Of a stretch of DNA of 64,000 nt, positions 1 to 9,744 are shown piece by piece (position 1 is the first letter of the stretch; the number at the start of each line of letters is the position of its first letter). The DNA is from an uncultured Hyphomicrobiales bacterium (GTDB lineage: Bacteria > Pseudomonadota > Alphaproteobacteria > Rhodospirillales > 2-12-FULL-67-15), in the NCBI GenBank assembly GCA_964412955.1, contig CAYPQV010000014.1:20014-84013 (forward strand), in the 5' to 3' direction. Both the position numbers and the translations under genes were made by a program. The notes under the pieces are model-generated. The model did not search any database. It had not been told where the DNA came from and worked only from the letters and a program-made list of their open reading frames with translations.

Positions 1-1614
1 GACCTGCCGGTGCAATACGGCAAACCGGAGGAGTTTAAATATTACAAGAACGCCCATCCCAAACCGGACATCGGCGCGGTCAGTCGAGACGATCTCATCA
101 AGACCATCCGCAAGTGCCATCAAACCTTATGGGGCGGCGGCCGTCTCTCGCCGCCGATGGCCTTCGGGGAACTCACCAAGCTGATTTTCTTGAAGACGCG
201 AGATGAGAAAAAACCGCGCAAAAAAGGCGAGCCCTACAACTTTCAGATCAAGACTAACGAAACGCCAAAGCGCCTAGCTGATCGCATTAAAGCCCTGTAC
301 GCGGCGGAGCGGCAGGAAGAGCCAGATGTCTTCAACGATGACATCAAAATCGACGACAGCACTCTGAAAAACGTTGTGCTCCACCTGGAAGGCGTCAATC
401 TCACGGCGACTGATCTTGACACCAAGGGCGTTGCCTTCGAGCAATTCATGGATGGCTTTTTCAAGGGCGACTTCGGCCAATACTTCACGCCGCGCAACAT
501 CATTGCCTTTGCTGTTCAAATGCTCGACATCAAAGCAGATGACACGGTGATGGATCCGGCTTGCGGCTCCGGCGGGTTTCTGTTGCATGCTCTCGACCAT
601 GTGCGCAGGCTGGCCGATGATTATTTTCCCGGCGAAGGGGGTGGCGATGGAGAAGAAGAAAGTGGCCGCCATCGAGATTATTGGCATAGTTTTGCCAAAG
701 AGCGCCTCTTCGGCATCGAAATCAATGAAGAGATTGCGCGTGTCGCCAAAATGAACATGATCGTCCACGATGACGGCCACACGAACGTTATCGGAAGCGA
801 TGCTCTGGAGCCATTGGCCGCCATCTCCAGGAAGAACCATGACTTCGCCACCATCGTCGGTATCGACATGGAAACCGGACGACGCGACGAAAGGAAGGGT
901 TTCACTAAGATTCCTACCAATCCCCCTTTTGGTGCGGTCATCAAAGATGATCTGCATGACTACCTTTCCAGCTACGAACTTTCCCGCTACGTCGCCAAGG
1001 GTAGTAGCAAAAACGACGATGATTTGGAGGACGAAAGCGCCGACCCCACCGCTGGCAAGAAGGCCATCAAGCAGCGGGCCAGCGTCAAGACAGAGATCAT
1101 TTACTGTGAGCGGGTCTGGCAGCTCCTCAAACCGGGCGGACAAGCCGCCGTTATCCTGCCGGACGGGCTGCTAACTAACGCCAGTCTGCAGGGGGTTCGC
1201 GATTGGCTGCTGGAGCGCTTCAAGGTGCTGGCTGTGGTGTCGTTGCCGCAATTCGCGTTCGCTCATTTCGGCGCCGGGGTGAAGTCCAGCGTGGTATTCC
1301 TGGAAAAGCGCGCCGCCAAATTGCGCGCCTTGGGCGACGAGGCCATATTCATGGCCATGGCCGAGAACATCGGATACGACGCAACAGGCCGTACTACGTA
1401 TCAAGTAGATGTGTTGGACGAAACGCTGGGGCAGACCCGTATTGAGCGCCAACGCTGCGATCTTTTCGACTGGCAAGTCAACTTCGATTGGATTCCTGGC
1501 GAAGGCAAGAAGCCCGGCCACTGGTCGGAGCGTCATCGCCATGTGTTGCCAGGCAGCGGTTTGCTTGGTCAATACGCCGCCTTCAAGCGGGACCCAAAAC
1601 CTTTTTTCGTCTAG
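1..1614 (+). CDS. hsdM: Type I restriction-modification DNA methyltransferase subunit HsdM (5' end cut by window edge)
   Basis: The reading frame is open to nt 1. It has AdoMet motif I 'DPACGSGGFL' and N6-adenine catalytic motif 'NPPFG', and is directly followed by an HsdS gene. Confidence 0.9.
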   Translation, partial: DLPVQYGKPEEFKYYKNAHPKPDIGAVSRDDLIKTIRKCHQTLWGGGRLSPPMAFGELTKLIFLKTRDEKKPRKKGEPYNFQIKTNETPKRLADRIKALYAAERQEEPDVFNDDIKIDDSTLKNVVLHLEGVNLTATDLDTKGVAFEQFMDGFFKGDFGQYFTPRNIIAFAVQMLDIKADDTVMDPACGSGGFLLHALDHVRRLADDYFPGEGGGDGEEESGRHRDYWHSFAKERLFGIEINEEIARVAKMNMIVHDDGHTNVIGSDALEPLAAISRKNHDFATIVGIDMETGRRDERKGFTKIPTNPPFGAVIKDDLHDYLSSYELSRYVAKGSSKNDDDLEDESADPTAGKKAIKQRASVKTEIIYCERVWQLLKPGGQAAVILPDGLLTNASLQGVRDWLLERFKVLAVVSLPQFAFAHFGAGVKSSVVFLEKRAAKLRALGDEAIFMAMAENIGYDATGRTTYQVDVLDETLGQTRIERQRCDLFDWQVNFDWIPGEGKKPGHWSERHRHVLPGSGLLGQYAAFKRDPKPFFV

Positions 1615-1649
1615 CCCCCGTTCCCGCAGGGCAGCCAATTTGCTTTGCG

Positions 1650-2999
1650 GTGCGGCGGGGGGAACTGCCAGGAGAGCGACTTGACCCAGGTTATGTGCGC
1701 AATGCTAAGAAACAAAGTTACGTTTATCCCAAACGCAGTCTAGCGAGCTTGGTATCAGAAGAGCCCTGCTATGGCACATCGGCACAAGCAATAGAGCGAA
1801 TCAGCGAGGATCAACCTCGCTATATCCGCATCACAGATTACGGGGAAGATGGCATCACATTGCCGCATGAGTTTGTAGCTGCCGAGGAGTGGGCAGATAA
1901 ACACCGGCTTTCGGTAGGTGACCTATTGTTTGCTCGAAGCGGGGCAACCGTCGGCAAGACCTATCTACATGATGCACGATTTGATCCAGCGGTCTTTGCG
2001 GGTTATTGCATCCGATTCAGGTTCAACAATGAGGTTGAGCCCAAATTCGTCTATGGCTTCACCAAAACAGATGCCTATGCATCATGGGTTGCTGCGGTTC
2101 AGCGCCCAGCAGGGCAGCCGAATATCAACAAGGAAGAATTCAAGTCTTTAGAAATACCTCTTCCGCCCCTCGATATCCAACGACACCTAGTGGCCGAACT
2201 CGACGCAGCTCGCGCCGAGCGCGACCGCGCGTTGGCAAAGGCAGAGCAGTTGCTATCGAGCTTCGAACCGTGGGCAATTAAGGAAATGGGTCTATCAATC
2301 CCCAAAGGCCATGGCCGCAAGGTCTACGCAATTAGAAGGAATGTTGTCACCTCCCGGATCGACCCTTTCTTTCACGCTCCTGAATTCGTTGAGATAGAAC
2401 GGGTGATTCAAGCCGCGTCTCATGCGCCGCTTGGTTCTCTTGTTCAGTTCTCTAGCGACACCCGGAATCCGAAAGAACAATCGGAACCAACCTTCCGATA
2501 CATCGAAATAAGCGGTGTTGACCGTCGCAGAGGACAGGCTAAGGCATCCGTCATTTCCGCCGATAATGCACCGAGCCGCGCACGGATGGTTGTTCAGCCG
2601 GATGACATCATCGTCAGCCTTACACGGCCCCATCATGGTTCGATTGCTTTGCTTAACGAATATCATGAGGGGAGTATAGCCTCTACCGGATTTGCAGTAA
2701 TTCGTCATGTTGATGAAAGCCGAGTCAGTCGTACATTTTTGTGGGCCACCTTGAGACTTTCGCTGTCCCTTAAGCAAATGCTTCGCCGGTCGAGCGGTGG
2801 CAATTATCCTGCAATTACGCAGGACGAGTTAGCGAACGTACTGATCCCGATCCCTTGCGTCTCCATACAAAATAAGATTGTCGAGGAGGTTGTTCATCGC
2901 AACAGCGAAGCCGATCGGCTGGAAGCCCGCGCCGAAGCCGTCTGGCGCAAAGCTCGAGAGCGCTTCGAGCAGCTGCTCTTGCAAGGAGATAAAGTATGA
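1650..2999 (+). CDS. hsdS: Type I restriction-modification specificity subunit HsdS
   Basis: Two-TRD layout with a central conserved helix 'LPPLDIQRHLVAELDAARAERDRAL' and a C-terminal conserved helix 'IQNKIVEEVVHRNSEADRLEARAEAVW'. The TRD motif 'ARSGATVGKTY' is present. The ORF is open from 1488, but GTG 1650 (after the hsdM stop) is preferred; the start is uncertain. Confidence 0.8.
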   Translation: MRRGELPGERLDPGYVRNAKKQSYVYPKRSLASLVSEEPCYGTSAQAIERISEDQPRYIRITDYGEDGITLPHEFVAAEEWADKHRLSVGDLLFARSGATVGKTYLHDARFDPAVFAGYCIRFRFNNEVEPKFVYGFTKTDAYASWVAAVQRPAGQPNINKEEFKSLEIPLPPLDIQRHLVAELDAARAERDRALAKAEQLLSSFEPWAIKEMGLSIPKGHGRKVYAIRRNVVTSRIDPFFHAPEFVEIERVIQAASHAPLGSLVQFSSDTRNPKEQSEPTFRYIEISGVDRRRGQAKASVISADNAPSRARMVVQPDDIIVSLTRPHHGSIALLNEYHEGSIASTGFAVIRHVDESRVSRTFLWATLRLSLSLKQMLRRSSGGNYPAITQDELANVLIPIPCVSIQNKIVEEVVHRNSEADRLEARAEAVWRKARERFEQLLLQGDKV

Positions 3000-4621
3000 T
3001 CCTGTCTGGCATCCTGCACACTTCCCTGGGAGGCTTCACGGTTATTCGGGGTGTCGCTCCCCTTGGGGAACTTGCGCGATGCTCGCGTTTTGATGGTGCC
3101 TACCAGCGCAATCTGATCGAAACGCATAAGGAAGAGATCGAGCGCTTCTTAAACGAGCAACAATATCTATTTTTTCCTGAAGTGATCTTATCTGCATCGC
3201 TGCAATTCGATTTTAAAGCTTACAAGGGTAAACGTACTGTCGCTCCGGTGACAGACATCCTTTCTGGATCAGGCTTTACCTCCAACGTTAACGGCCTATC
3301 CGTGAAGACTGTTACCACAAAACTTCCAAAAAAATTAGAAGTTATTGGCGTCGCTAACGCACCACAACTGGCCTACCTGTATTTGCCGGAGGAACAACTC
3401 GACAAGGGCCTTAAATTATTTCGCATCGACGGCAACCATCGTCTGAGCGCCGCGAATGATTTGAAGCCTGGTGAGATTAATTACATCTTACCCACACCTT
3501 TTTGCATCGTGCTACATGATGAGCCGACGCAAGCACAGCGTTTTGAGAGAGTCGTTTTTCACAATATCAATAGCAAGCAGATACCACTAACTTCCGAAGA
3601 GAATTTACGCCTCATTCTTCAGACAGGTGAGGGTGCGTTATTTTCTGACGAAGATTTTCTTATCAAACCGAGTTTTGGCCCGGCGTATTACTTGGCACGG
3701 AAGCTCTTACCGCAGTTCAGTGCGGATTATCTCGGAGGGCTCGCCAGGCATTTCGAGAATCGGTATACCCTTGCCCTTGCCCTTGCTCAGTTCCTTGTCG
3801 CAAAAGATGAAGAGCTAAAAAAAGCTGTCGATGCGAACAATCTTGATTCGCAAGTCTCGCGTTTGCGGAGTGCACTTAAATCAGTCAACGCTATCTATGA
3901 GGAATCTCACCTGAACCGTCTCCAGGAATCAGGCTGCCATGGCGTGCTCATCGCCTTTGCTTACTTCGCTATCAAGAACGATGGTAAGCAGCTTCCTGCT
4001 TTTGCGCGCTGGGTGATAGGGAACCGCATCGACCGGCTTGCTCCGGCGACTACCACGCGGAGTCTGGGCTACCATTATCACCTGGGACGCACCCAGGCAG
4101 TGGATGCGGCCAGCTTAGTCGAGGTATTTGAAAGTGTGCTGACATCTCGTCGCCGCGAGGTATTCGTATCTATGGAATTCGGGACGCACACCGACGCGGT
4201 CTATGCGGCGATTGAGGCCGCCATCGCACAGGTGAATAAGAGTCATTACCTGCAGCAAGCCGGTCTGGCCCTGAAAACTGTCCGTATTGATCGCGTAAAC
4301 AAAGGGCACAGTTACACCATTACCGACGAAATATTGCAAATTATCGACGGCTGCGGGCTCCTTATCGCCGATCTGACACAAAGTAACAAAAACGTTTACC
4401 ACGAGGTCGGATTTTTGATGGGCCTGAACCAAGGGCGGAGAGAGCCGCACGAGAACTTCGTCTTGATCGCAGACGGCAACAAAATAAAAGACGAGGCCAT
4501 TGGGTTCAACTTACGCCCATGGCAGCAGATTCGCTTTAACGACACATTGGAGCTGACTAAGCGGCTGGTCAATTCACTGGAACACCACTTCGAATTGAAG
4601 GGGTCGGGGCCAGCAGTATGA
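2996..4621 (+). CDS. Uncharacterised RM-linked protein: N-terminal DGQHR/ParB(DndB)-like domain, helical middle region, C-terminal TIR-like / nucleoside 2-deoxyribosyltransferase-like domain
   Basis: The ATG at 2996 overlaps the hsdS stop (ATGA), with an AAGGAG Shine-Dalgarno at 2983-2988. 'AYQRNL' (aa 35-40) and 'FRIDGNHRLSA' (aa 142-152) match the DGQHR-family layout. 'VFVSMEF' (aa 389-395) and 'GLLIADLTQSNKNVYHEVGFLMGL' (aa 67-90 of the C-terminal block) match TIR-like/NDT-like domains. The domain calls are by eye only. Confidence 0.6.
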   Translation: MILSGILHTSLGGFTVIRGVAPLGELARCSRFDGAYQRNLIETHKEEIERFLNEQQYLFFPEVILSASLQFDFKAYKGKRTVAPVTDILSGSGFTSNVNGLSVKTVTTKLPKKLEVIGVANAPQLAYLYLPEEQLDKGLKLFRIDGNHRLSAANDLKPGEINYILPTPFCIVLHDEPTQAQRFERVVFHNINSKQIPLTSEENLRLILQTGEGALFSDEDFLIKPSFGPAYYLARKLLPQFSADYLGGLARHFENRYTLALALAQFLVAKDEELKKAVDANNLDSQVSRLRSALKSVNAIYEESHLNRLQESGCHGVLIAFAYFAIKNDGKQLPAFARWVIGNRIDRLAPATTTRSLGYHYHLGRTQAVDAASLVEVFESVLTSRRREVFVSMEFGTHTDAVYAAIEAAIAQVNKSHYLQQAGLALKTVRIDRVNKGHSYTITDEILQIIDGCGLLIADLTQSNKNVYHEVGFLMGLNQGRREPHENFVLIADGNKIKDEAIGFNLRPWQQIRFNDTLELTKRLVNSLEHHFELKGSGPAV

Positions 4622-4773
4622 TCGGAGTTGCTGTCGGTCTAGGGATGATAACTTTTTTGCTTTAGTAAATTTCTAGAACTATGTTGGTTGATAAATATCG
4701 GGCTGTGATCCCAAAAACTATGACTATTTTGCGCCGTGGACAGTTGGCCTAGTAGTGTGAACGATAAAGGTGG

Positions 4774-5946
4774 CTAGGGATTATCCTCCGGGTCTTCTGG
4801 CGGGCCGTTCCCGGCGGCTTGGGCCAGGGCCACCCCCGGCAAGGGCCCACCGTTCTTAAACCACATGGCCTTCGCCCTTTGGGCGCGATCTTGAAGCAAT
4901 CCTAACCGGAACCGCCCGCCCCCCGTTTCCGGAGTCGTGGTGTAATTTCGGACGATGCTGCAAGGCTCTCGATATGGACTAAACCGGGGCATGGGCGCGG
5001 TTCGGGCAATAAGCTCGTTCTCGCGTGGCGACAGCTTTAGGCTTTGGACCGGCATATCTCGATTCTGACGTTTGACCCGAGCCAAGTTTAAGCCCCGGTC
5101 ATTCGCAATCGCGGCGATCTTGCAGCCGTCGTTGTCCAGTTCCCGGCAAAACTCGGCAAAGGCCCCCATGGGCTGCATCAGTTTAAGCTGCCGTATCTCA
5201 ATTGAGAGCCATGCAAGATCACCGGGCGACAGGTGGCCCATTTCAGTCGGCTTGAAAGGGTACTTAACCGCTTCGTCGGCTTTACGGAGGCGGCCCGAAT
5301 CGCGCCAGTGTGCCCCGACATAGGATCGGGTCCGGGCAAGGAACTTCTCCCATTGCTCGGGAGTGAGCTTTTGGCGTGGCGCATATAGGATATTGGCGTG
5401 GAGATGGAAAGTCCGGGCCTGGTCAATAGTGAACTCAGTCCCCCGAAAAATCATCTCCACGCCGAATTTTTGCCGCGCCAGGTTGGCCCATTTGGACAAG
5501 AGGCGATGAAAGCTCTGAATCTCACCTCGCAAGTTGTTGCCCAGGGGAATACGTGGCCCGGCGGTGACGACGGCGAATCGAACGTAAGAACCTTTATTCC
5601 AAGTCTTAAGAAAATAGCGCAGGGCATTTCGCATCGGCGCGCGTTCTTGTTGCGCGACTAGGGGAAGAAAGCGAATTCGCCGGAACTGATCGGGGGTATC
5701 GACGCACCCTGTTACATCGCCAATCAGGCTAACCGGATTATTGCGCTGATAGGCTGGGATACCGGCTGATTCCAAACTATCCGCCAATGTACGGGTTTGC
5801 GCCTTTAGGGCTTCATTGCGTCGGCGAACTTTACGCCAAACATGCAAAGGCACGCCAATGCCGGTATTGGCAGTTAACAAGTCCTCGATTTTAGTGGCGG
5901 CTTCGCCGCCGTTTTTGTCATGCCGGGCCTTAGGGTGGCCCGGCAT
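4774..5946 (-). CDS. Rolling-circle replication initiator-like / HUH endonuclease-like protein
   Basis: HUH-type motif 'FHLHANILY' (aa 180-188). About 45 aa downstream lies 'EAVKYPFKP', resembling the E..KY..K active-site Tyr motif of pC194/pUB110-type Rep proteins. The gene lies in the island backbone. Confidence 0.5.
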   Translation of the reverse strand: MPGHPKARHDKNGGEAATKIEDLLTANTGIGVPLHVWRKVRRRNEALKAQTRTLADSLESAGIPAYQRNNPVSLIGDVTGCVDTPDQFRRIRFLPLVAQQERAPMRNALRYFLKTWNKGSYVRFAVVTAGPRIPLGNNLRGEIQSFHRLLSKWANLARQKFGVEMIFRGTEFTIDQARTFHLHANILYAPRQKLTPEQWEKFLARTRSYVGAHWRDSGRLRKADEAVKYPFKPTEMGHLSPGDLAWLSIEIRQLKLMQPMGAFAEFCRELDNDGCKIAAIANDRGLNLARVKRQNRDMPVQSLKLSPRENELIARTAPMPRFSPYREPCSIVRNYTTTPETGGGRFRLGLLQDRAQRAKAMWFKNGGPLPGVALAQAAGNGPPEDPEDNP

Positions 5947-6031
5947 GACGGGTTCCGGCGCGTTCCGCGCCGGGGCCGCCTTGGGTTTTAGGGCCGGATT
6001 CGATTTTTTGATTCAGCATCGGTGAAAGAGC

Positions 6032-6061
6032 GGGGCGCGGGGGAAAGTGCCCCCGCGCCCC
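6032..6061. repeat. Perfect 12-bp GC inverted repeat (GGGGCGCGGGGG / CCCCCGCGCCCC) with a 6-nt loop, between the alpA-like and rep-like genes
   Basis: Read directly: arms at 6032-6043 and 6050-6061, loop AAAGTG. It lies about 90 bp upstream of the rep-like start codon on the minus strand. Confidence 0.6.
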
Positions 6062-6147
6062 TTTGGTGCCTTCCGGCCCCAAAATCCCCGGCGGTGCGGC
6101 CAGCCCCACCGGGGCAAAACCGGGGAGAGTGAGGGCGCGGCTGGGCA

Positions 6148-6387
6148 TCAGGCCGCATCCTGGGAAGTATTGAACCGGCGGTGCTTCTCGATCCAGGCGA
6201 TCAAGTCTCGGCGGCAATAACGGATAGATCGGCTGGAAATCTTGATGAAAGCGGGCCCACCCCCGCGTACTCGCCAGTTTTGAAGGGCGCGGACGGTGTA
6301 GCCAAGGAAACGCGCCGCGTCTTGCTCGTTAAGAAGTTGGTCGAAGTAATCAGGCGAAACCGGATGTTGGTGCGCCAAGGTATCCAT
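6148..6387 (-). CDS. AlpA/excisionase-family helix-turn-helix DNA-binding protein
   Basis: 79 aa. 'LLNEQDAARFLGYTVRALQNWRVRGGGPAFIKISSRSIRYCRRDLIAWI' is typical of AlpA/Xis-type HTH_17 proteins found in integrative islands. Confidence 0.8.
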   Translation of the reverse strand: MDTLAHQHPVSPDYFDQLLNEQDAARFLGYTVRALQNWRVRGGGPAFIKISSRSIRYCRRDLIAWIEKHRRFNTSQDAA

Positions 6388-6475
6388 GTTGGTGTTCTCC
6401 GAATAGCGATTGAGCTACTCGGACAACATCCATGAAAACAAAATCTCGAAAAACATCTATAAATAGGGTTGGAAT

Positions 6476-7237
6476 TTATAGTTTCGAGATTTGTTTTCTT
6501 TCATTGAAAAGGGGGCTAACTATTTTGGCTAACGTTTTATCGTTAAGGCCTTTGGTTTTCTTAGGATCATCGGGAAAATGCGTCAAAACCCACTCCCGTA
6601 TCATCGGGAAATAATGCTTCATGGGTTTCGAGAAATTAATTGCGCCTGAGGCATGTAACGTATTGAAAGCCTCCGAAATTTGATGCTCTCGGCTTGGGCG
6701 GCCAGGGCTCTTTATCCCTTCAGGGAAATGGCGTGCGATTAACTCGGCTTCTTGCGCTGGGGCAATCAAACGAAGCCCGGCCATTTCGAGGCCATTTCCC
6801 TTCGCGTAGTCCTTCTCCCATTTGATTTCGCCTGCCCAAAGGTCAAGCGGAGCCGGTTGGGGAATATCTTCAGCCCGACGAGGCAAGGTAAAGCCATAAG
6901 CCTTAAGCTTTCCAGACTGAATCCACGCGAGGCAATTTGCCTTAAGGGTGCGATCTAGTGCGAGGTAAGCGGATACGTCTTTATTATATTTACCCATCCG
7001 ATCTGAAGGCGATTTTTTAGACTGTATAACTTCGGTGAAGGCCGCCAAGCCTTTGTCAATTCCGGCAGAGTCTCTGGCTACGACATATTTCTGCCTAAAA
7101 TCGCTCGACGCAAAACTTACAAAGGCGGAGCTGAGAGGAATTCCGCGTTTCCAAAATATCCAAGGGTCCATGATTGTTCTTGGTGATAAGCCAAGCCTCC
7201 GAATTGGTAGGGATAAAATAGGATTTGTTTTTGGCAA
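6476..7237 (-). CDS. Hypothetical protein (island orphan; no recognisable motif)
   Basis: A 253-aa ORF in the most AT-rich part of the window, on the same strand as the alpA-like and rep-like genes. I recognise no motifs in it. Confidence 0.5.
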   Translation of the reverse strand: MPKTNPILSLPIRRLGLSPRTIMDPWIFWKRGIPLSSAFVSFASSDFRQKYVVARDSAGIDKGLAAFTEVIQSKKSPSDRMGKYNKDVSAYLALDRTLKANCLAWIQSGKLKAYGFTLPRRAEDIPQPAPLDLWAGEIKWEKDYAKGNGLEMAGLRLIAPAQEAELIARHFPEGIKSPGRPSREHQISEAFNTLHASGAINFSKPMKHYFPMIREWVLTHFPDDPKKTKGLNDKTLAKIVSPLFNERKQISKL

Positions 7238-7275
7238 AAATTAGGCAGTTGGGCATTGGCGGCGGAGGAAGTGTT

Positions 7276-7424
7276 ACGCCCCGTATACAGCTACGTATAC
7301 GGGGCGTCTGATTGGATAACGTGTTCTAGGGGGGCGTTATCGTTTTTCCCCGTTACGTATACGTTACGAGAGGCTCGTTAAATGGGGCTCCGTATACGGG
7401 CCCGTATACGTATACGTAACGGGG
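7276..7424. repeat. Palindrome cluster A: six GTATAC cores with C/G-run flanks
   Basis: GTATAC occurs at 7283, 7295, 7357, 7392, 7404 and 7410. There is a 13-bp inverted repeat at 7276-7288/7295-7307 and a 16-bp inverted repeat at 7348-7363/7409-7424. Confidence 0.85.
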
Positions 7425-7452
7425 GGGGCGGATCGGTCGCGCGAGACTACAA

Positions 7453-7597
7453 CCCTAGGGGTATTTCTCGCGAAGAATCCCCTTAGGGGAGTATATCGAG
7501 ACTGCCAACGAAAAACCCCTAGGGGTTTTTGGCCCCTAGGGGGGCATGTCGGGGCTGCTGATGAAAAGTCCCTAGGGACTTTATGTCCCTAGGGGCT
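7453..7597. repeat. Palindrome cluster B: five CCTAGG and one CCTTAGG cores with C/G-run flanks
   Basis: CCTAGG occurs at 7454, 7518, 7535, 7571 and 7588. TCCCCTTAGGGGA spans 7478-7490. There is a perfect 20-bp palindrome at 7511-7530 and an 18-bp palindrome at 7565-7582. Confidence 0.85.
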
Positions 7598-9013
7598 CGG
7601 TCGCGGAACATCAGATTGTGCGATTCCCGGTACGGGGATTTGCCCCGTACCGGGAATAGTCGGTACTGGATTTTGGGCCATACTCGGTACTGACTTTTTG
7701 TCGGTACTGACGCTTGCCGTCTTATTCTGACTTCCGCCGAGGCTGTCCCCGTACCGGGATACAGTGTTCTCATTGGCCGGAGGATTAGCCCGGTACGGGG
7801 AATTCCCGGTACCGGGATTTTCCGCCTGGGCCTGTGTGGGGCTTTCGGGGGCGTTGTCATTGCCGCCAAAGAGGGCGCGGGCGATCTCCCCGGATATGCG
7901 ATTGGCGGAATCCCGGATGGGGTTGTCAGCCAAGTGGGCATATCGGGCCGTGGTTTGCACTTGGGAATGGCCCAGGAGCTTGCCGATCATGGGAAGGGCC
8001 TCGCCAATGGCAAGAGCACCCGAGGCAAATGTATGTCGAAGGTCATGTATTCGCACGTCATCAAGTCCCGCCCGGGCACGAATGCGCCGCCAAGGGCGTT
8101 CCAGGTCCGTTAAGTGCTGCTTTTCGACCTGGCCGGTAATGACGTACTCGTTGCCTTTGGTCTTCTCTATCCCGTCTAGAACCTTTCTGGCCGCTTCCCC
8201 GAGGTAAACGATCTTTGGACCGGTCTTGGAATCGGGCAGGGTGATGGTGTTCCCGTTAACGTAAGACCATTTTAGGGTTTGGATTTCTCCCCGGCGGCAG
8301 CCGGTCAGGATCAGGAGCTTGAACGCGGCAATGGCGGCCTTGGATTCCGGGTTCTCCTTAAGCTCATCCTCGAAGGCTTGCCCGAGCGCGGCCATTTCTT
8401 TGGCTGATAAAAACCTTTGGCGTTTGTCTTCCCGGTATTTCTTCACATGGTGGCAGGGATTAGACCCGTCCGGGCGCAAGCCCCAGACTTCCGCCAGATT
8501 GAACATCTTGGAAAGGACGCCCAGGGTCCGGTTCGCCTGATAGGGGATATGCCCCATGCCCTGGTGCAGCTTGGCGATATCGGACCGCTTAACGTCGATA
8601 ACCCTAAAAGCACCAATGGCCGGAGCGATGAACAGGCCAATAGACCGCTCATACTCTTTGGCCGTACTCAGCTTGCAGTGATGGGCGACATGCTCCCTAA
8701 GGAAACGGTCGCATACGTCCTTGATGGTAGGGGACTTGCGGCGGGTGTTGATCTCCTCGGCGGGGTTGTCGCCCTTGGCAACCAGGCCAAGAAGCTCCTT
8801 GGCCCGTTTACGGGCTTCGTCCGGGGTCAGGGTGCCATGACGGCCGATATTCACCCGCCGGGTGCGACCCCCGGAGCGATACTGCACCAGATATGTTTTG
8901 CGCCCGCCGGGCAGTACCCGAAGGGCAAAGCCCGGCAAGCCCTCATCGAAAACGAAGTAGTCCTTCGTCTCGGGCTTCGCGCTATCGACAAAACGCTTGG
9001 TCAGTTTCGGCAT
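7589..9013 (-). CDS. int: Tyrosine recombinase / phage-type integrase (P4-like, with N-terminal arm-binding domain)
   Basis: 'GFALRVLPGGRKTYLVQYR' matches the DUF4102-type N-terminus. Catalytic motifs 'HDLRHTFAS' and 'LLGHSQVQTTARYAHL' are present. ATG 9013 (MPKLTKRF) is preferred over 9031. An unusual tail of about 80 aa is encoded by repeat cluster C. Confidence 0.9.
   Translation of the reverse strand: MPKLTKRFVDSAKPETKDYFVFDEGLPGFALRVLPGGRKTYLVQYRSGGRTRRVNIGRHGTLTPDEARKRAKELLGLVAKGDNPAEEINTRRKSPTIKDVCDRFLREHVAHHCKLSTAKEYERSIGLFIAPAIGAFRVIDVKRSDIAKLHQGMGHIPYQANRTLGVLSKMFNLAEVWGLRPDGSNPCHHVKKYREDKRQRFLSAKEMAALGQAFEDELKENPESKAAIAAFKLLILTGCRRGEIQTLKWSYVNGNTITLPDSKTGPKIVYLGEAARKVLDGIEKTKGNEYVITGQVEKQHLTDLERPWRRIRARAGLDDVRIHDLRHTFASGALAIGEALPMIGKLLGHSQVQTTARYAHLADNPIRDSANRISGEIARALFGGNDNAPESPTQAQAENPGTGNSPYRANPPANENTVSRYGDSLGGSQNKTASVSTDKKSVPSMAQNPVPTIPGTGQIPVPGIAQSDVPRPSP
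7623..7817. repeat. Palindrome/iteron cluster C: GGTAC/GTACC cores (inside the 3' end of the int ORF)
   Basis: There is a 15-bp inverted repeat at 7623-7637/7643-7657. TCGGTACTG direct repeats occur at 7660, 7684 and 7701. CCCCGTACCGGGA spans 7747-7759, CCCGGTACGGGG spans 7789-7800, and the palindrome TCCCGGTACCGGGA spans 7804-7817. Confidence 0.85.
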
Positions 9014-9172
9014 GGCGATTTCTGGAAGCAATCTGGAAGCAGTTGGAAGCAGAATCGGGAGTCAACCAGCGTGAGTCAGTGTAGACCCGCACCGTGAATC
9101 CTCTAAGCAAAACAAGGCGAAATGATGGTGTTTCGTAGGTCAGAGAAGTTGAGCGAAACAGTCCGAGCGAAA

Positions 9173-9217
9173 CTCATAACCTGAAGGTCAGAGGTTCAAA
9201 TCCTCTCCCCGCAACCA
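9173..9217 (+). pseudogene. 3' fragment of tRNA-Met(CAU) (anticodon loop to CCA), marking the island/chromosome junction (att core)
   Basis: CTCATAACCTGAAGGTCAGAGGTTCAAATCCTCTCCCCGCAACCA parallels the 3' 45 nt of a bacterial tRNA-Met/fMet. No complementary 5' acceptor strand (TGCGGGG), D-arm or 5' anticodon stem lies upstream. Confidence 0.7.
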
Positions 9218-9261
9218 CATGAAAAACGCCGCCTCCCGATGGGATGGCGGCGTTTTGCCGT
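9202..9261 (+). repeat. Direct repeat copy 1 (last 16 nt of tRNA-Met plus downstream terminator)
   Basis: A 60-bp repeat with 58/60 identity to 9760-9819. Confidence 0.9.
9223..9256 (+). terminator. Rho-independent terminator-like hairpin after the tRNA fragment
   Basis: AAAACGCCGCC ... GGCGGCGTTTT stem followed by a T-run. Confidence 0.6.
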
Positions 9262-9309
9262 TTTGGTGCTATTTTAGGCTCCGCATCCGCCGCCTCTTGA
9301 GGGACGCCG

Positions 9310-9744
9310 ATGACCGATTCATTTCCCGTCGTGATTCATCACAATCCCCAATGCGGGACGTCCCGTAACGTGCTTTCGATCATCAAGGCGGCGGGGTACG
9401 AACCCGAGGTTATTCCTTATCTCGAAACCGGCTGGACGCGGCCGCAGCTGCTGGCGCTTTTTGCCGCGGCCGGCCTTTCGCCCCGCGCCGCGTTGCGCGA
9501 AACAAAATCGCCCGCCAAGGAACTTGGCTTACTGGAGCCGGGCGTATCCGATGCCGTCATCCTGAACGCCATGCTGATCCATCCCGTTTTGGTCAACCGC
9601 CCGATCGTTGCGACGCCCAAGGGCGTCCGTCTCTGCCGGCCCTCGGAAAAAGTTCTCGATCTGCTCGATCGTTGGCCGCCCGGGCCGCTCGCCAAGGAAG
9701 ACGGCGGTATGATCCTGGACGTCCAAGGCCGGCGGGTCGGGTAG
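9310..9744 (+). CDS. arsC: Arsenate reductase, glutaredoxin-coupled (R773 ArsC family)
   Basis: 'HNPQCGTSRN' catalytic Cys motif, plus 'HPVLVNRPIV' and 'RLCRPSE', which are collinear with E. coli plasmid R773 ArsC. Confidence 0.9.
   Translation: MTDSFPVVIHHNPQCGTSRNVLSIIKAAGYEPEVIPYLETGWTRPQLLALFAAAGLSPRAALRETKSPAKELGLLEPGVSDAVILNAMLIHPVLVNRPIVATPKGVRLCRPSEKVLDLLDRWPPGPLAKEDGGMILDVQGRRVG

Follow-up and report, generated by a model that had tools for sequence, protein, structure and literature searches.

Positions 7276-7817 of the window, by which we mean the whole stretch of 64,000 nucleotides from an uncultured Hyphomicrobiales bacterium, form a dense tract of short palindromes within an island that encodes a P4-type integrase (int), an AlpA-family protein (alpA) and a rolling-circle replication protein (rep). 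The tract is real and conserved, and in our reading it is a regulatory and terminator region whose units follow an unusual palindrome grammar that can be reused. Three clusters can be told apart: cluster C with GTAC cores inside the 3' part of int, cluster B with CTAG cores at the int end, and cluster A with ACGT and GTATAC cores ahead of the X-alpA-rep operon, whose first gene we call gene X. Tentatively, we favour a composite control region of the island backbone, in which CTAG units serve as int terminators, ACGT dyads as operators of X-alpA-rep, and further GTAC units are added to these. Neighbouring CTAG units of cluster B would pair into two tandem Rho-independent terminators, beginning at the int stop codon, and would halt int transcription ahead of the next operon. 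The dyads of cluster A, together with an island-specific inverted repeat, would be operators for a dimeric DNA-binding protein (AlpA, or a helper or host factor) that sets the expression of the X-alpA-rep excision and replication operon. The GTAC dyads of cluster C would be members of the same family that have extended into a region which int simply reads across, and may act as further sites or hairpins. Much of the variable defence cargo of bacteria resides on small int-alpA islands, whose switching and copying are known for only a few enterobacterial and staphylococcal models; the tract offers a conserved, experimentally tractable control region for an alphaproteobacterial island family, in which one palindrome grammar is reused in terminators, likely operators and, in relatives, in-frame protein segments.

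The motifs quoted in the original prediction are all found where it placed them, as are its inverted repeats (arms of 13, 17 and 15 nt, each 100% complementary) and its perfect palindromes (7511-7530, 7565-7582 and 7804-7817). Within 7250-7830 lie six of the eight GTATAC and five of the six CCTAGG words of the whole window, along with every copy of CCCTAGGG (five), TCGGTACTG (three) and CCGTATAC (three). Short palindromes, taken as those with arms of at least 5 and no more than 2 of spacer, number 11 in the 542 bp, against 2.06 +/- 1.6 (maximum 9) in 500 dinucleotide shuffles, and windows over the tract have the highest short-palindrome density of the 64 kb, which bears out the claim that nothing similar occurs elsewhere in the window. 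The density of GTAC is 14.8 per kb in the tract vs 1.24 outside (12-fold), that of CTAG 11.1 vs 0.44 (25-fold) and that of TATA 12.9 vs 0.43 (30-fold), and folding relative to shuffled sequence is extreme on the two strands (z = -10.7 and -9.8). The units share one grammar, namely a palindromic core of 4 bp whose central step is TA or CG, clamped by a C-run and a G-run and flanked by A/T-rich sequence. They are spaced by about 16-19 bp, often by 16-17 bp, with spacers of 3-7 nt that are mostly A/T-rich, and the distance from C-run to G-run varies between 0 and 6 bp. No strongly AT-rich tract was seen by eye within the arrays, the only A/T-richer stretch being that at ~7195-7250, between cluster A and gene X. 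A CRISPR array was rejected, as it had been before, since there is no constant repeat or period. A blastn search of the tract against plasmids and phages gave no match, and a literature search for the palindrome strings returned nothing relevant save CsoR operators.

Three related islands (L004, L005 and L006; L-numbers denote the contigs and loci compared), whose Int proteins are 71-77% identical to that of the window island, share both the unit types and their succession from C through B to A: the Int tail holds GTAC units, a CTAG unit contains the int stop codon, CTAG hairpins come next, and ACGT dyads stand just before the next operon. Motifs rather than spacers are conserved, a distinction to which the original prediction had pointed; the units hold their position across islands while loops and spacers vary, and some symmetric changes keep the palindromes. 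In agreement with its view that coding does not explain the pattern, the tract has the character of a non-coding-type cis element of the island backbone. L004 and L005 combine the backbone of the window island with other cargo (Fic; DUF3800 with a ResIII helicase), and their AlpA proteins are 82-85% identical to that of the window island; the contig of L006 ends soon after int. Rep is 84% identical in L004, and the rep slot of L005 holds an unrelated protein of ~385 aa. L004 has in addition a run of about eight CCCGGG units at 10-12-bp spacing, and a more distant island, L050 (Int 65% identical), possesses the cluster A dyads only, without B or C units. The three clusters had been proposed as a single hub; in L004 and L005, a gene of 119-139 aa separates the B/C block from the A block, and we therefore regard them as two modules, not one array. 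In a further alphaproteobacterial metagenome-assembled genome (L035, 1160-1510), about 23 tandem copies of the 15-bp GGGTTGCCTATAGAC are followed directly by four CCCTAGGG units with A-rich spacers, which looks like plasmid or phage iterons adjoining the same unit grammar.

The terminator features lie in cluster B, which contains the following elements.
7448-7493, minus strand: two single units, CCCTAGGGG and CCCCTTAGGGG, in a 26-nt imperfect palindrome.
7509-7542, minus strand: second terminator-like hairpin, CCCCTAGGGG-CCAAAAA-CCCCTAGGGG, then TTTTTCG (terminator scan).
7563-7597, minus strand: first terminator-like hairpin, CCCTAGGGAC-ATAAA-GTCCCTAGGG, then ACTTTTC (terminator scan).

The first hairpin (stem-loop 7594-7570) has a predicted folding energy (dG) of -20.6 kcal/mol and the second (stem-loop 7542-7516) one of -21.4 kcal/mol. 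The 5' arm of the first hairpin includes the int stop codon (7589-7591), which is the TAG of a CTAG unit, so that cluster B is not wholly intergenic, as had been supposed of both A and B. Across the three sequences available (the window island, L004 and L005), the first hairpin keeps a 13-pair stem with two compensatory pairs and its T-run, while the loop is variable; L004 also has a hairpin at the position of the second terminator, followed by ATTTTT. The GC-rich stem-loops followed by a T-run after int, with compensatory change in the stem, are as expected of Rho-independent terminators, and cluster B appears from its sequence to be largely two tandem intrinsic-terminator-like hairpins at the int end. 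Perfect palindromes lie at 7511-7530 (AAAAACCCCTAGGGGTTTTT) and 7565-7582 (AAAGTCCCTAGGGACTTT), and the 53-bp segment 7480-7532 is a tandem duplicate of 7533-7585 at 72% identity. The earlier proposal of a multi-operator region for the leftward operon fits cluster A. Pseudomonas AlpA is known to load at a promoter element and override downstream terminators (PMC7969949). The island resembles tandem terminators overridden by AlpA or Q-type antiterminators in having two GC-rich hairpins with T-runs after a stop codon, compensatory changes and an AlpA-family gene downstream, but differs in that its stems are built of two palindrome copies, and the likeness accounts for only part of cluster B.

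A scan of the genome collection for CCCCTAGGGG-N5-9-CCCCTAGGGG yielded 40 loci, mostly Streptomyces and Polaromonas repeats and none of them island-related; the window's own genome was without a match, and the viral contigs gave one unrelated match. In those unrelated genomes, palindromes of the CCCCTAGGGG type form dispersed, multi-copy families resembling repetitive extragenic palindromes (REP), with up to 7 units in 400 bp (L015, L019, L020, L022, L038, L043 (Streptomyces sp. ODS28); L013, L025 (Polaromonas)). REP sequences and bacterial interspersed mosaic elements (BIME), like the Rickettsia palindromic elements, are clustered short GC-rich palindromes that can stabilise mRNA, and those of Rickettsia insert in frame. 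The units of the tract differ from all of these in that they are much shorter, are of several kinds, come without a REP-associated tyrosine transposase (RAYT) and are not dispersed in the 64 kb, where no CCCTAGGG, TCGGTACTG or CCGTATAC occurs beyond the tract; a REP/BIME identity was rejected on this last ground. The generic repeat family that would have spoken against the original prediction was likewise not found outside the tract in the 64 kb.

The stability of the hairpins could also point to a structured RNA that protects the 3' end of the int mRNA, serves as leader or attenuator of the X operon, or is processed into a small RNA as in P4 immunity. Such an RNA would account for the very stable hairpins on the transcribed strand, the int stop codon within the 5' arm of the first terminator and the compensatory pairs, but the symmetry is equal on both strands, palindromy at the level of the unit is superfluous for RNA, and the in-frame arrays of primase genes described below would impede translation. 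The covariation is weak because only 3-4 sequences are to hand, and no Rfam family reaches threshold; a scan of 6000-9400 with E up to 5 gave chance-level miRNA and sRNA matches only, far under the gathering scores. We give this explanation a slim chance. Type III toxin-antitoxin RNA repeats were rejected as an identity, the repeats being heterogeneous and the downstream gene without a toxin match.

Cluster A, next to the operon, is made up of three elements.
7276-7307, minus strand: promoter-proximal inverted repeat ACGCCCCGTATAC-N6-GTATACGGGGCGT, with 13-nt arms (7276-7288 and 7295-7307) that are 100% complementary.
7348-7368, minus strand: dyad 'OA2', in sense orientation CGTAACG-TATA-CGTAACGGGG, with CGTWACG at 7351 and 7362.
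7387-7425, minus strand: dyad 'OA1' (CCCCGTTACGTATACGTATACGG, sense) with CCGTATACGG and the 20-bp palindrome CGTATACGGGCCCGTATACG.

These elements lie 100-250 bp upstream of gene X, ahead of the X-alpA-rep operon. The inverted repeat, which as RNA would form a hairpin of -25.1 kcal/mol (z -6.1), is specific to the window island and has no counterpart in L004, L005 or L050. The two dyads, in contrast, are shared: two 18-bp dyads of the form CGTWACG-TWWA-CGTWACG, about 55 bp apart, align across the window island, L004, L005, L006 and L050, with OA2 aligned to CGTAACGTTAACGTAACGGGG in L004 and CGTTACATTAACGTTACGGG in L050, and OA1 to CGTTACGTATACGTAA in L004 and L006. GTATAC, which had been taken as the core of this cluster, is present, but it is ACGT (as CGTWACG), and not only GTATAC, that recurs. 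In the window island, 7348-7364 and 7408-7424 could pair as a 17-nt, 100% complementary stem, and this pairing of OA1 with OA2 is seen only there. The dyads of L006 and L087 are each a perfect palindrome of 16-22 bp and are not complements of each other, which favours binding of a dimer over long-range pairing.

The motif is linked to the wider island family by a survey of 61 AlpA-family loci (57 metagenomic loci from a scan for AlpA relatives, together with the window island, L004, L005 and L050) and 41 control loci. At least three copies of CGTWACG per 300 bp were found in 15 of the 61 AlpA-family loci and in none of the 41 controls. The ACGT-dense block of 13 loci is found 1.0-1.25 kb upstream of alpA, which in those checked corresponds to the int-X junction, and the helix-turn-helix region of AlpA is nearly invariant across the 57 metagenomic relatives; the viral contig collection contained no AlpA relatives. 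Autoactivation is known from Gram-negative phage-inducible chromosomal islands (PICIs), where AlpA stimulates the promoter of its own gene (PMC6092414). AlpA is, if weakly, the leading candidate for the protein that would read the dyads.

Bacterial operators of comparable layout are known. The Bacillus Noc site is ATTTCCCGGGAAAT. CsoR-type operators consist of a C-tract, a short core and a G-tract (PMC3902906), and the bisS site of ICEclc is GAGCTATCCCCnGGGGATAGCTC (PMC12409273). The units of the tract share with these an A/T flank, C-run, short core, G-run and A/T flank in dyad symmetry, and L004 carries AATTTCCCGGGATTT, in line with this operator grammar. However, many clustered units with several cores occur in the tract, and neither a CsoR-family nor a ParB-CTPase protein is recognised among the shared backbone genes. 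The DGQHR protein had been put forward as one possible reader; it is variable cargo of the window island alone, absent from L004 and L005, and therefore cannot be the reader. Loading sites of the ParB type (parS, NBS, bisS) were rejected as an identity because the weak DGQHR match is confined to the cargo of the window island and is absent from L004 and L005.

Several observations weigh against the composite control region that we favour. No cognate binding protein was identified for the units; at least three different cores would require several proteins, and a distance of 0-6 bp between C-run and G-run argues against a single rigid dimer. The unit spacing of 16-19 bp with 3-7-nt, mostly A/T-rich spacers is more easily reconciled with hairpin loops than with helical phasing, the surroundings of cluster A gave no convincing sigma-70 promoter, and cluster C is without T-runs and has no assigned role. 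The helix-turn-helix of AlpA is also nearly unchanged in those long AlpA loci, about half of them, that lack the ACGT block. There are, moreover, six islands with a Toprim-DUF3987 primase-helicase whose ACGT block and clamped units are found some 1 kb downstream of alpA, placed in frame within the primase-helicase open reading frame (ORF), where neither an operator nor a terminator would be expected. A grammar that appears with other cores at variable positions is easier to understand in a site of which each element needs one than in an operator tied to a promoter.

Among these primase-type islands, int and X directly adjoin each other in L074, the one checked for this. Behind the ACGT block come CCC-TTTAAA-GGG, CCC-CTTAAG-GGG or CCC-TATA-GGG units in the Toprim loop and the linker after it (L080 6915-7443, L065 6360-6800, L074 6985-7205). 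The ACGT dyads encode ...LRNVTG... in the Toprim loop, and CCCTTTAAAGGG and CCCCTTAAGGG encode PFKG and PLKG linker repeats. L057 has its block in the interval that separates alpA from the replication gene. Over 7.5 kb of L080, no iteron-like repeats other than these arrays occur, and a 36-bp tandem duplication is present.

Such placements raise the possibility of a position-independent site, present once per element, that acts as hairpins in single-stranded DNA or as an origin, for example a single-strand origin or priming signal from which the complementary strand is made after rolling-circle replication or transfer, or, in the primase-type islands, the origin that the primase-helicase uses. 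In its hairpin version, the GC clamps would form stems closed by loops of TA cores or A/T spacers, and both strands would fold alike because the units are palindromic. This agrees with the variable backbone location (int-X, alpA-rep in L057, inside the primase-helicase ORF), with the arrays of L080, which leaves no room for an origin 3' of the gene, with the extreme fold on both strands, with the rolling-circle Rep of the island, and with unit and spacer lengths that read naturally as stems and loops where the distance from C-run to G-run is too variable for a rigid dimer. The extensive intrastrand pairing (150-300 nt is required) on a replicon with a rolling-circle Rep is likewise what a single-strand origin calls for. 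The single-strand origins found on rolling-circle plasmids are exchangeable cassettes that do not depend on Rep, and an origin of this kind would explain why the arrays do not co-vary with rep, and the iterons of the lambda origin are TCCC...GGGA dyads in the linker of the O gene. With lambda-type iterons and single-strand origins the tract shares clusters of dyad units, A/T-rich spacers, tolerance in a protein linker (in the primase-type islands), strong structure and independence of the Rep type, but it differs from them in the lack of a clear AT-rich unwinding element (as judged by eye), in the lack of a link to an initiator, and in that replicons with homologous Rep (L007, L008 and a Roseivivax plasmid) are without arrays. 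Furthermore, the arrays accompany three unrelated replication modules, CCCGGG units are unable to fold alone, and hairpins do not require the individually perfect dyads of L006 and L087. Of single-strand origins in particular, none of the known motifs (RSB, CS-6) was seen, although no search was aimed at them, and the units are symmetric, with no strand bias visible. We consider such a site, which is the main and a serious rival to the composite control region, possible, though doubtful. The more specific suggestion of an iteron origin for the Rep-like protein, made in the original prediction, is disfavoured, because the same arrays occur with a HUH Rep in the window island and L004 and with a non-homologous protein in the rep slot of L005, and are lacking in L007, L008 and the Roseivivax plasmid; an origin co-varying with its initiator was rejected for this reason. 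The PICI origin, in which two sets of iterons flank an AT-rich region 3' of rep (PMC6092414), differs as well, the island repeats lying 5' of the operon and comprising several palindrome types.

A related account, which we hold to be rather unlikely, gives up sequence-specific recognition altogether. The arrays would then be strings of GC-clamped mini-palindromes with interchangeable 4-6-bp cores (GTAC, CTAG, ACGT, CCGG, TATA, TTTAAA and CTTAAG), which act through hairpin or cruciform structure instead of as a sequence-specific operator, possibly as a priming, replication-start or mobilisation signal. They would be common to alphaproteobacterial int-alpA islands of any replication module, could take any place in the backbone and would be tolerated in frame. 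To our knowledge, palindrome strings with interchangeable cores have not been described as a cis element. If the units do act through DNA structure, they would represent a new kind of mobile-element signal and also a useful marker for finding islands in metagenomes.

The composite control region assigns its least certain part to cluster C, which lies within int and has the following features.
7589-7852, minus strand: C-terminal extension of Int, ~88 codons, over cluster C; the non-conserved 3' part of int.
7623-7657, minus strand: perfect inverted repeat ATTCCCGGTACGGGG-N5-CCCCGTACCGGGAAT, with 15-nt arms (7623-7637 and 7643-7657, 100%).
7660-7709, minus strand: three direct TCGGTACTG units, at 7660, 7684 and 7701, the only copies of the window.
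7746-7817, minus strand: units TCCCCGTACCGGGA (7746-7759) and CCCGGTACGGGGAATTCCCGGTACCGGG (7789-7816).

The inverted repeat at 7623-7657 is predicted to fold with -29.5 kcal/mol (z -7.0); its units are at the same positions in L004 and L005, where the pairing is imperfect. The three TCGGTACTG units align to CAGTACCGAC, CCGGTACTGG and CCAGTACTGG units of L004 and L005, a perfect palindrome, TCCCGGTACCGGGA, lies at 7804-7817, and symmetric changes that keep the palindrome are seen between islands at CCCGGTACCGGG, CCCCGTACGGG and TCCGTACGGA. About nine cores had been counted in this cluster; GTAC cores are indeed present, but they number eight (six GGTAC and three GTACC, one shared). Most Int homologues have 384-400 aa and cover ~80% of the query, and the long tail is found only in the closest three (71-77% identical). 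The tail region has hardly any stop codons in five of the six reading frames, so that the frame can stay open in the absence of coding selection, and the tail was rejected as a functional coding sequence. Two ORFs, at 7519-7941 (minus strand, 140 aa) and 7764-8207 (plus strand, 147 aa), overlap the arrays and the int 3' end; neither matches a family, and both most likely arise as a side effect of repeats poor in stop codons.

Palindromes in sequence of this kind might also grow selfishly or by mutation, through tandem duplication and hairpin-templated correction wherever they are tolerated, be it intergenic DNA or the tails and linkers of proteins, with only a few of them co-opted, for example as terminators. 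Duplications of the sort this calls for are present (53 bp in cluster B and 36 bp in L080), the in-frame arrays occupy tolerant parts of ORFs, the cores differ among islands, and a CTAG unit of the window island and L004 corresponds at one orthologous position to a GTAC unit of L005. Mutational growth alone would not be expected to keep unit positions across islands whose Int proteins are only 72-77% identical, or to leave the ACGT block at the same place in many distant islands and nothing similar elsewhere in the 64-kb window, and we think it improbable.

A role in restriction or methylation would make the tract a decoy or sensor of 4-6-bp restriction-type palindromes, recognised by a methyltransferase or nuclease that the host, a helper or the island supplies; the Dam hexamers of the P1 pac site are a model. 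All cores are 4-bp palindromes rare in host DNA, of which GTAC, CTAG and TATA are 12-30-fold enriched in the tract, and the island has defence-related cargo; however, the arrays go with the backbone and not with the cargo, which differs between the window island, L004 and L005, and the island methylase is of type I. Type I methylases recognise bipartite, not palindromic, sites. This role is very improbable.

Arm-type sites for Int or sites for a recombination directionality factor (RDF) in attP have next to no likelihood. The units are repeated and next to int, but the tract lies 1.4-1.9 kb from the attachment (att) core (9190-9217), where arm-type sites would be expected no more than a few hundred bp away, and other repeats, GGAAGCA/TGCTTCC, flank both att copies and are conserved upstream of int in relatives; arm-type sites were rejected as an identity of the tract on these grounds. 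Two or three tandem GGAAGCA/TGCTTCC copies are present per related island examined (L004 1689-1716, L005 162-179, L050 160-186, L074 3897-3939). The GGAAGCA triplet was also found upstream of int in L004, L005, L050, L074 and L087, and two more copies adjoin the other att copy of the window island. These repeats are probably, to judge from their placement, the Int arm-type sites or an operator of int.

The backbone that surrounds the tract runs on the minus strand, from right to left, as int, palindrome tract, gene X, alpA, a GC-rich spacer and rep, and comprises the following features.
9190-9217, plus strand: att direct repeat AGAGGTTCAAATCCTCTCCCCGCAACCA, 28 bp, at the right island end, with its twin at L001 10832-10859.
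9024-9051, plus strand: three GGAAGCA repeats, at 9024, 9035 and 9045, just upstream of the int start.
7589-9031, minus strand: P4-type tyrosine integrase, int (Pfam Arm-DNA-bind_3, 7.8e-18; Phage_integrase, 7.7e-20).
6476-7171, minus strand: gene X (231 aa), the first gene downstream of the arrays.
6148-6387, minus strand: AlpA-family winged-helix protein (Pfam HTH_17, 9.7e-10).
5946-6148, minus strand: alpA-rep spacer with GC-rich hairpins, annotated as an ORF of 72 aa; most columns are invariant in the window island, L004 and L005.
4774-5946, minus strand: rolling-circle (HUH) Rep, 390 aa (invariant motifs, fold matches).

The tract sits in a low-GC island (48-58% GC vs 60-70% around it), and GC rises to the higher level at the right att copy. 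The metagenomic contig L001 is 100% identical to window positions 1-9202 and reaches 1657 bp further left; the 28-bp repeat common to its far end and to window 9190-9217 indicates an element of ~10.85 kb. The 28-mer has the shape of a tRNA-like T-arm and acceptor with CCA, and the sequence directly upstream of it (9165-9189) resembles an anticodon arm with a CAT anticodon. These features suggest that the island targets a tRNA-Met-type gene, although ARAGORN and Rfam make no call on the fragment.

Gene X had been described as a 253-aa orphan. Its start really lies at 7171, which gives 231 aa, and it has positional homologues, being 26-29% identical to the genes in the same position of L050, L057 and L074. 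A word-indexed protein search with gene X found its self-match only, and Pfam, NCBIfam, PHROG, PADLOC and PDB sequences gave no match. The slot holds two families that are unrelated by profile comparison, the second of them in L004, L005 and L080, and neither shows a recognisable domain.

The spacer of ~200 bp between alpA and rep is more conserved at the DNA level than the genes flanking it in the window island, L004 and L005, and is kept in L005 despite the non-homologous gene downstream. It contains the hairpins GGGGCGCGGGGG-CACTTT-CCCCCGCGCCCC and CCGGCGCG-GAA-CGCGCCGG, the ORF called over it is Pro/Gly-rich, and the conserved hairpin had no matches in metagenome or viral contigs. The spacer may be a separate cis element or a small RNA.

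The 390-aa protein is a rolling-circle replication initiator, as identified from its motifs, from faint Rep_1 matches in distant homologues and from fold matches in BFVD. H181xH183 and E225xxKY229xxK232 are invariant across 27 homologues, and the structure model (pLDDT 89.5) matches Microvirus replication initiators and HRPV-1 protein 1. A 5.6-kb Roseivivax plasmid also carries a homologue. Rep itself has no direct match in Pfam, PHROG or PDB sequences, and a Foldseek search of the model against the PDB returned generic alpha/beta folds only. The unrelated ~385-aa protein of the rep slot occurs in L005 (3866-5020), L050 (3390-4571) and L057 (6885-8045) with the invariant motifs RxDFxxDF (also given as RxDFAxDF), VxVY[DE]K (VYDK) and WRxExR (WRVExR), which we take to recall nicking enzymes of the Rep_trans type, a resemblance that no database match confirmed.

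In its organisation, the island resembles Gram-negative PICIs and P4/CP4-57-like islands (PMC6092414), with a unidirectional arrangement of int, alpA and a replication gene, a P4-type integrase at a tRNA-like att site, a small size (~11 kb here), variable accessory or defence cargo and AlpA as the likely master switch. It differs in having a rolling-circle HUH Rep in place of a pri-rep helicase, in that no capsid, packaging or interference genes were seen in it, and in that its AlpA has no relative in the viral contig collection.

The cargo is on the plus strand (window 10-4621; L001 4582-10690) and comprises a type I methylase of 696 aa that carries an HSDR_N_2 domain, an S subunit, a 541-aa protein and a 236-aa protein. 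No HsdR accompanies the methylase and S subunit, which also match the MADS components mad2 and mad5, and the DGQHR match of the 541-aa protein is sub-threshold (31.8 bits vs the 58.85-bit cutoff). Right behind the rep stop codon, at 4738-4770, lies a 33-bp block, CCTTTATCGTTCACACTACTAGGCCAACTGTCC, which L004 has in common with the window island before the cargo diverges. It was the sole result of a search for k-mers shared among Rep-linked non-coding regions, made for the Rep nick site, and is a candidate for that site or for the end of the backbone.

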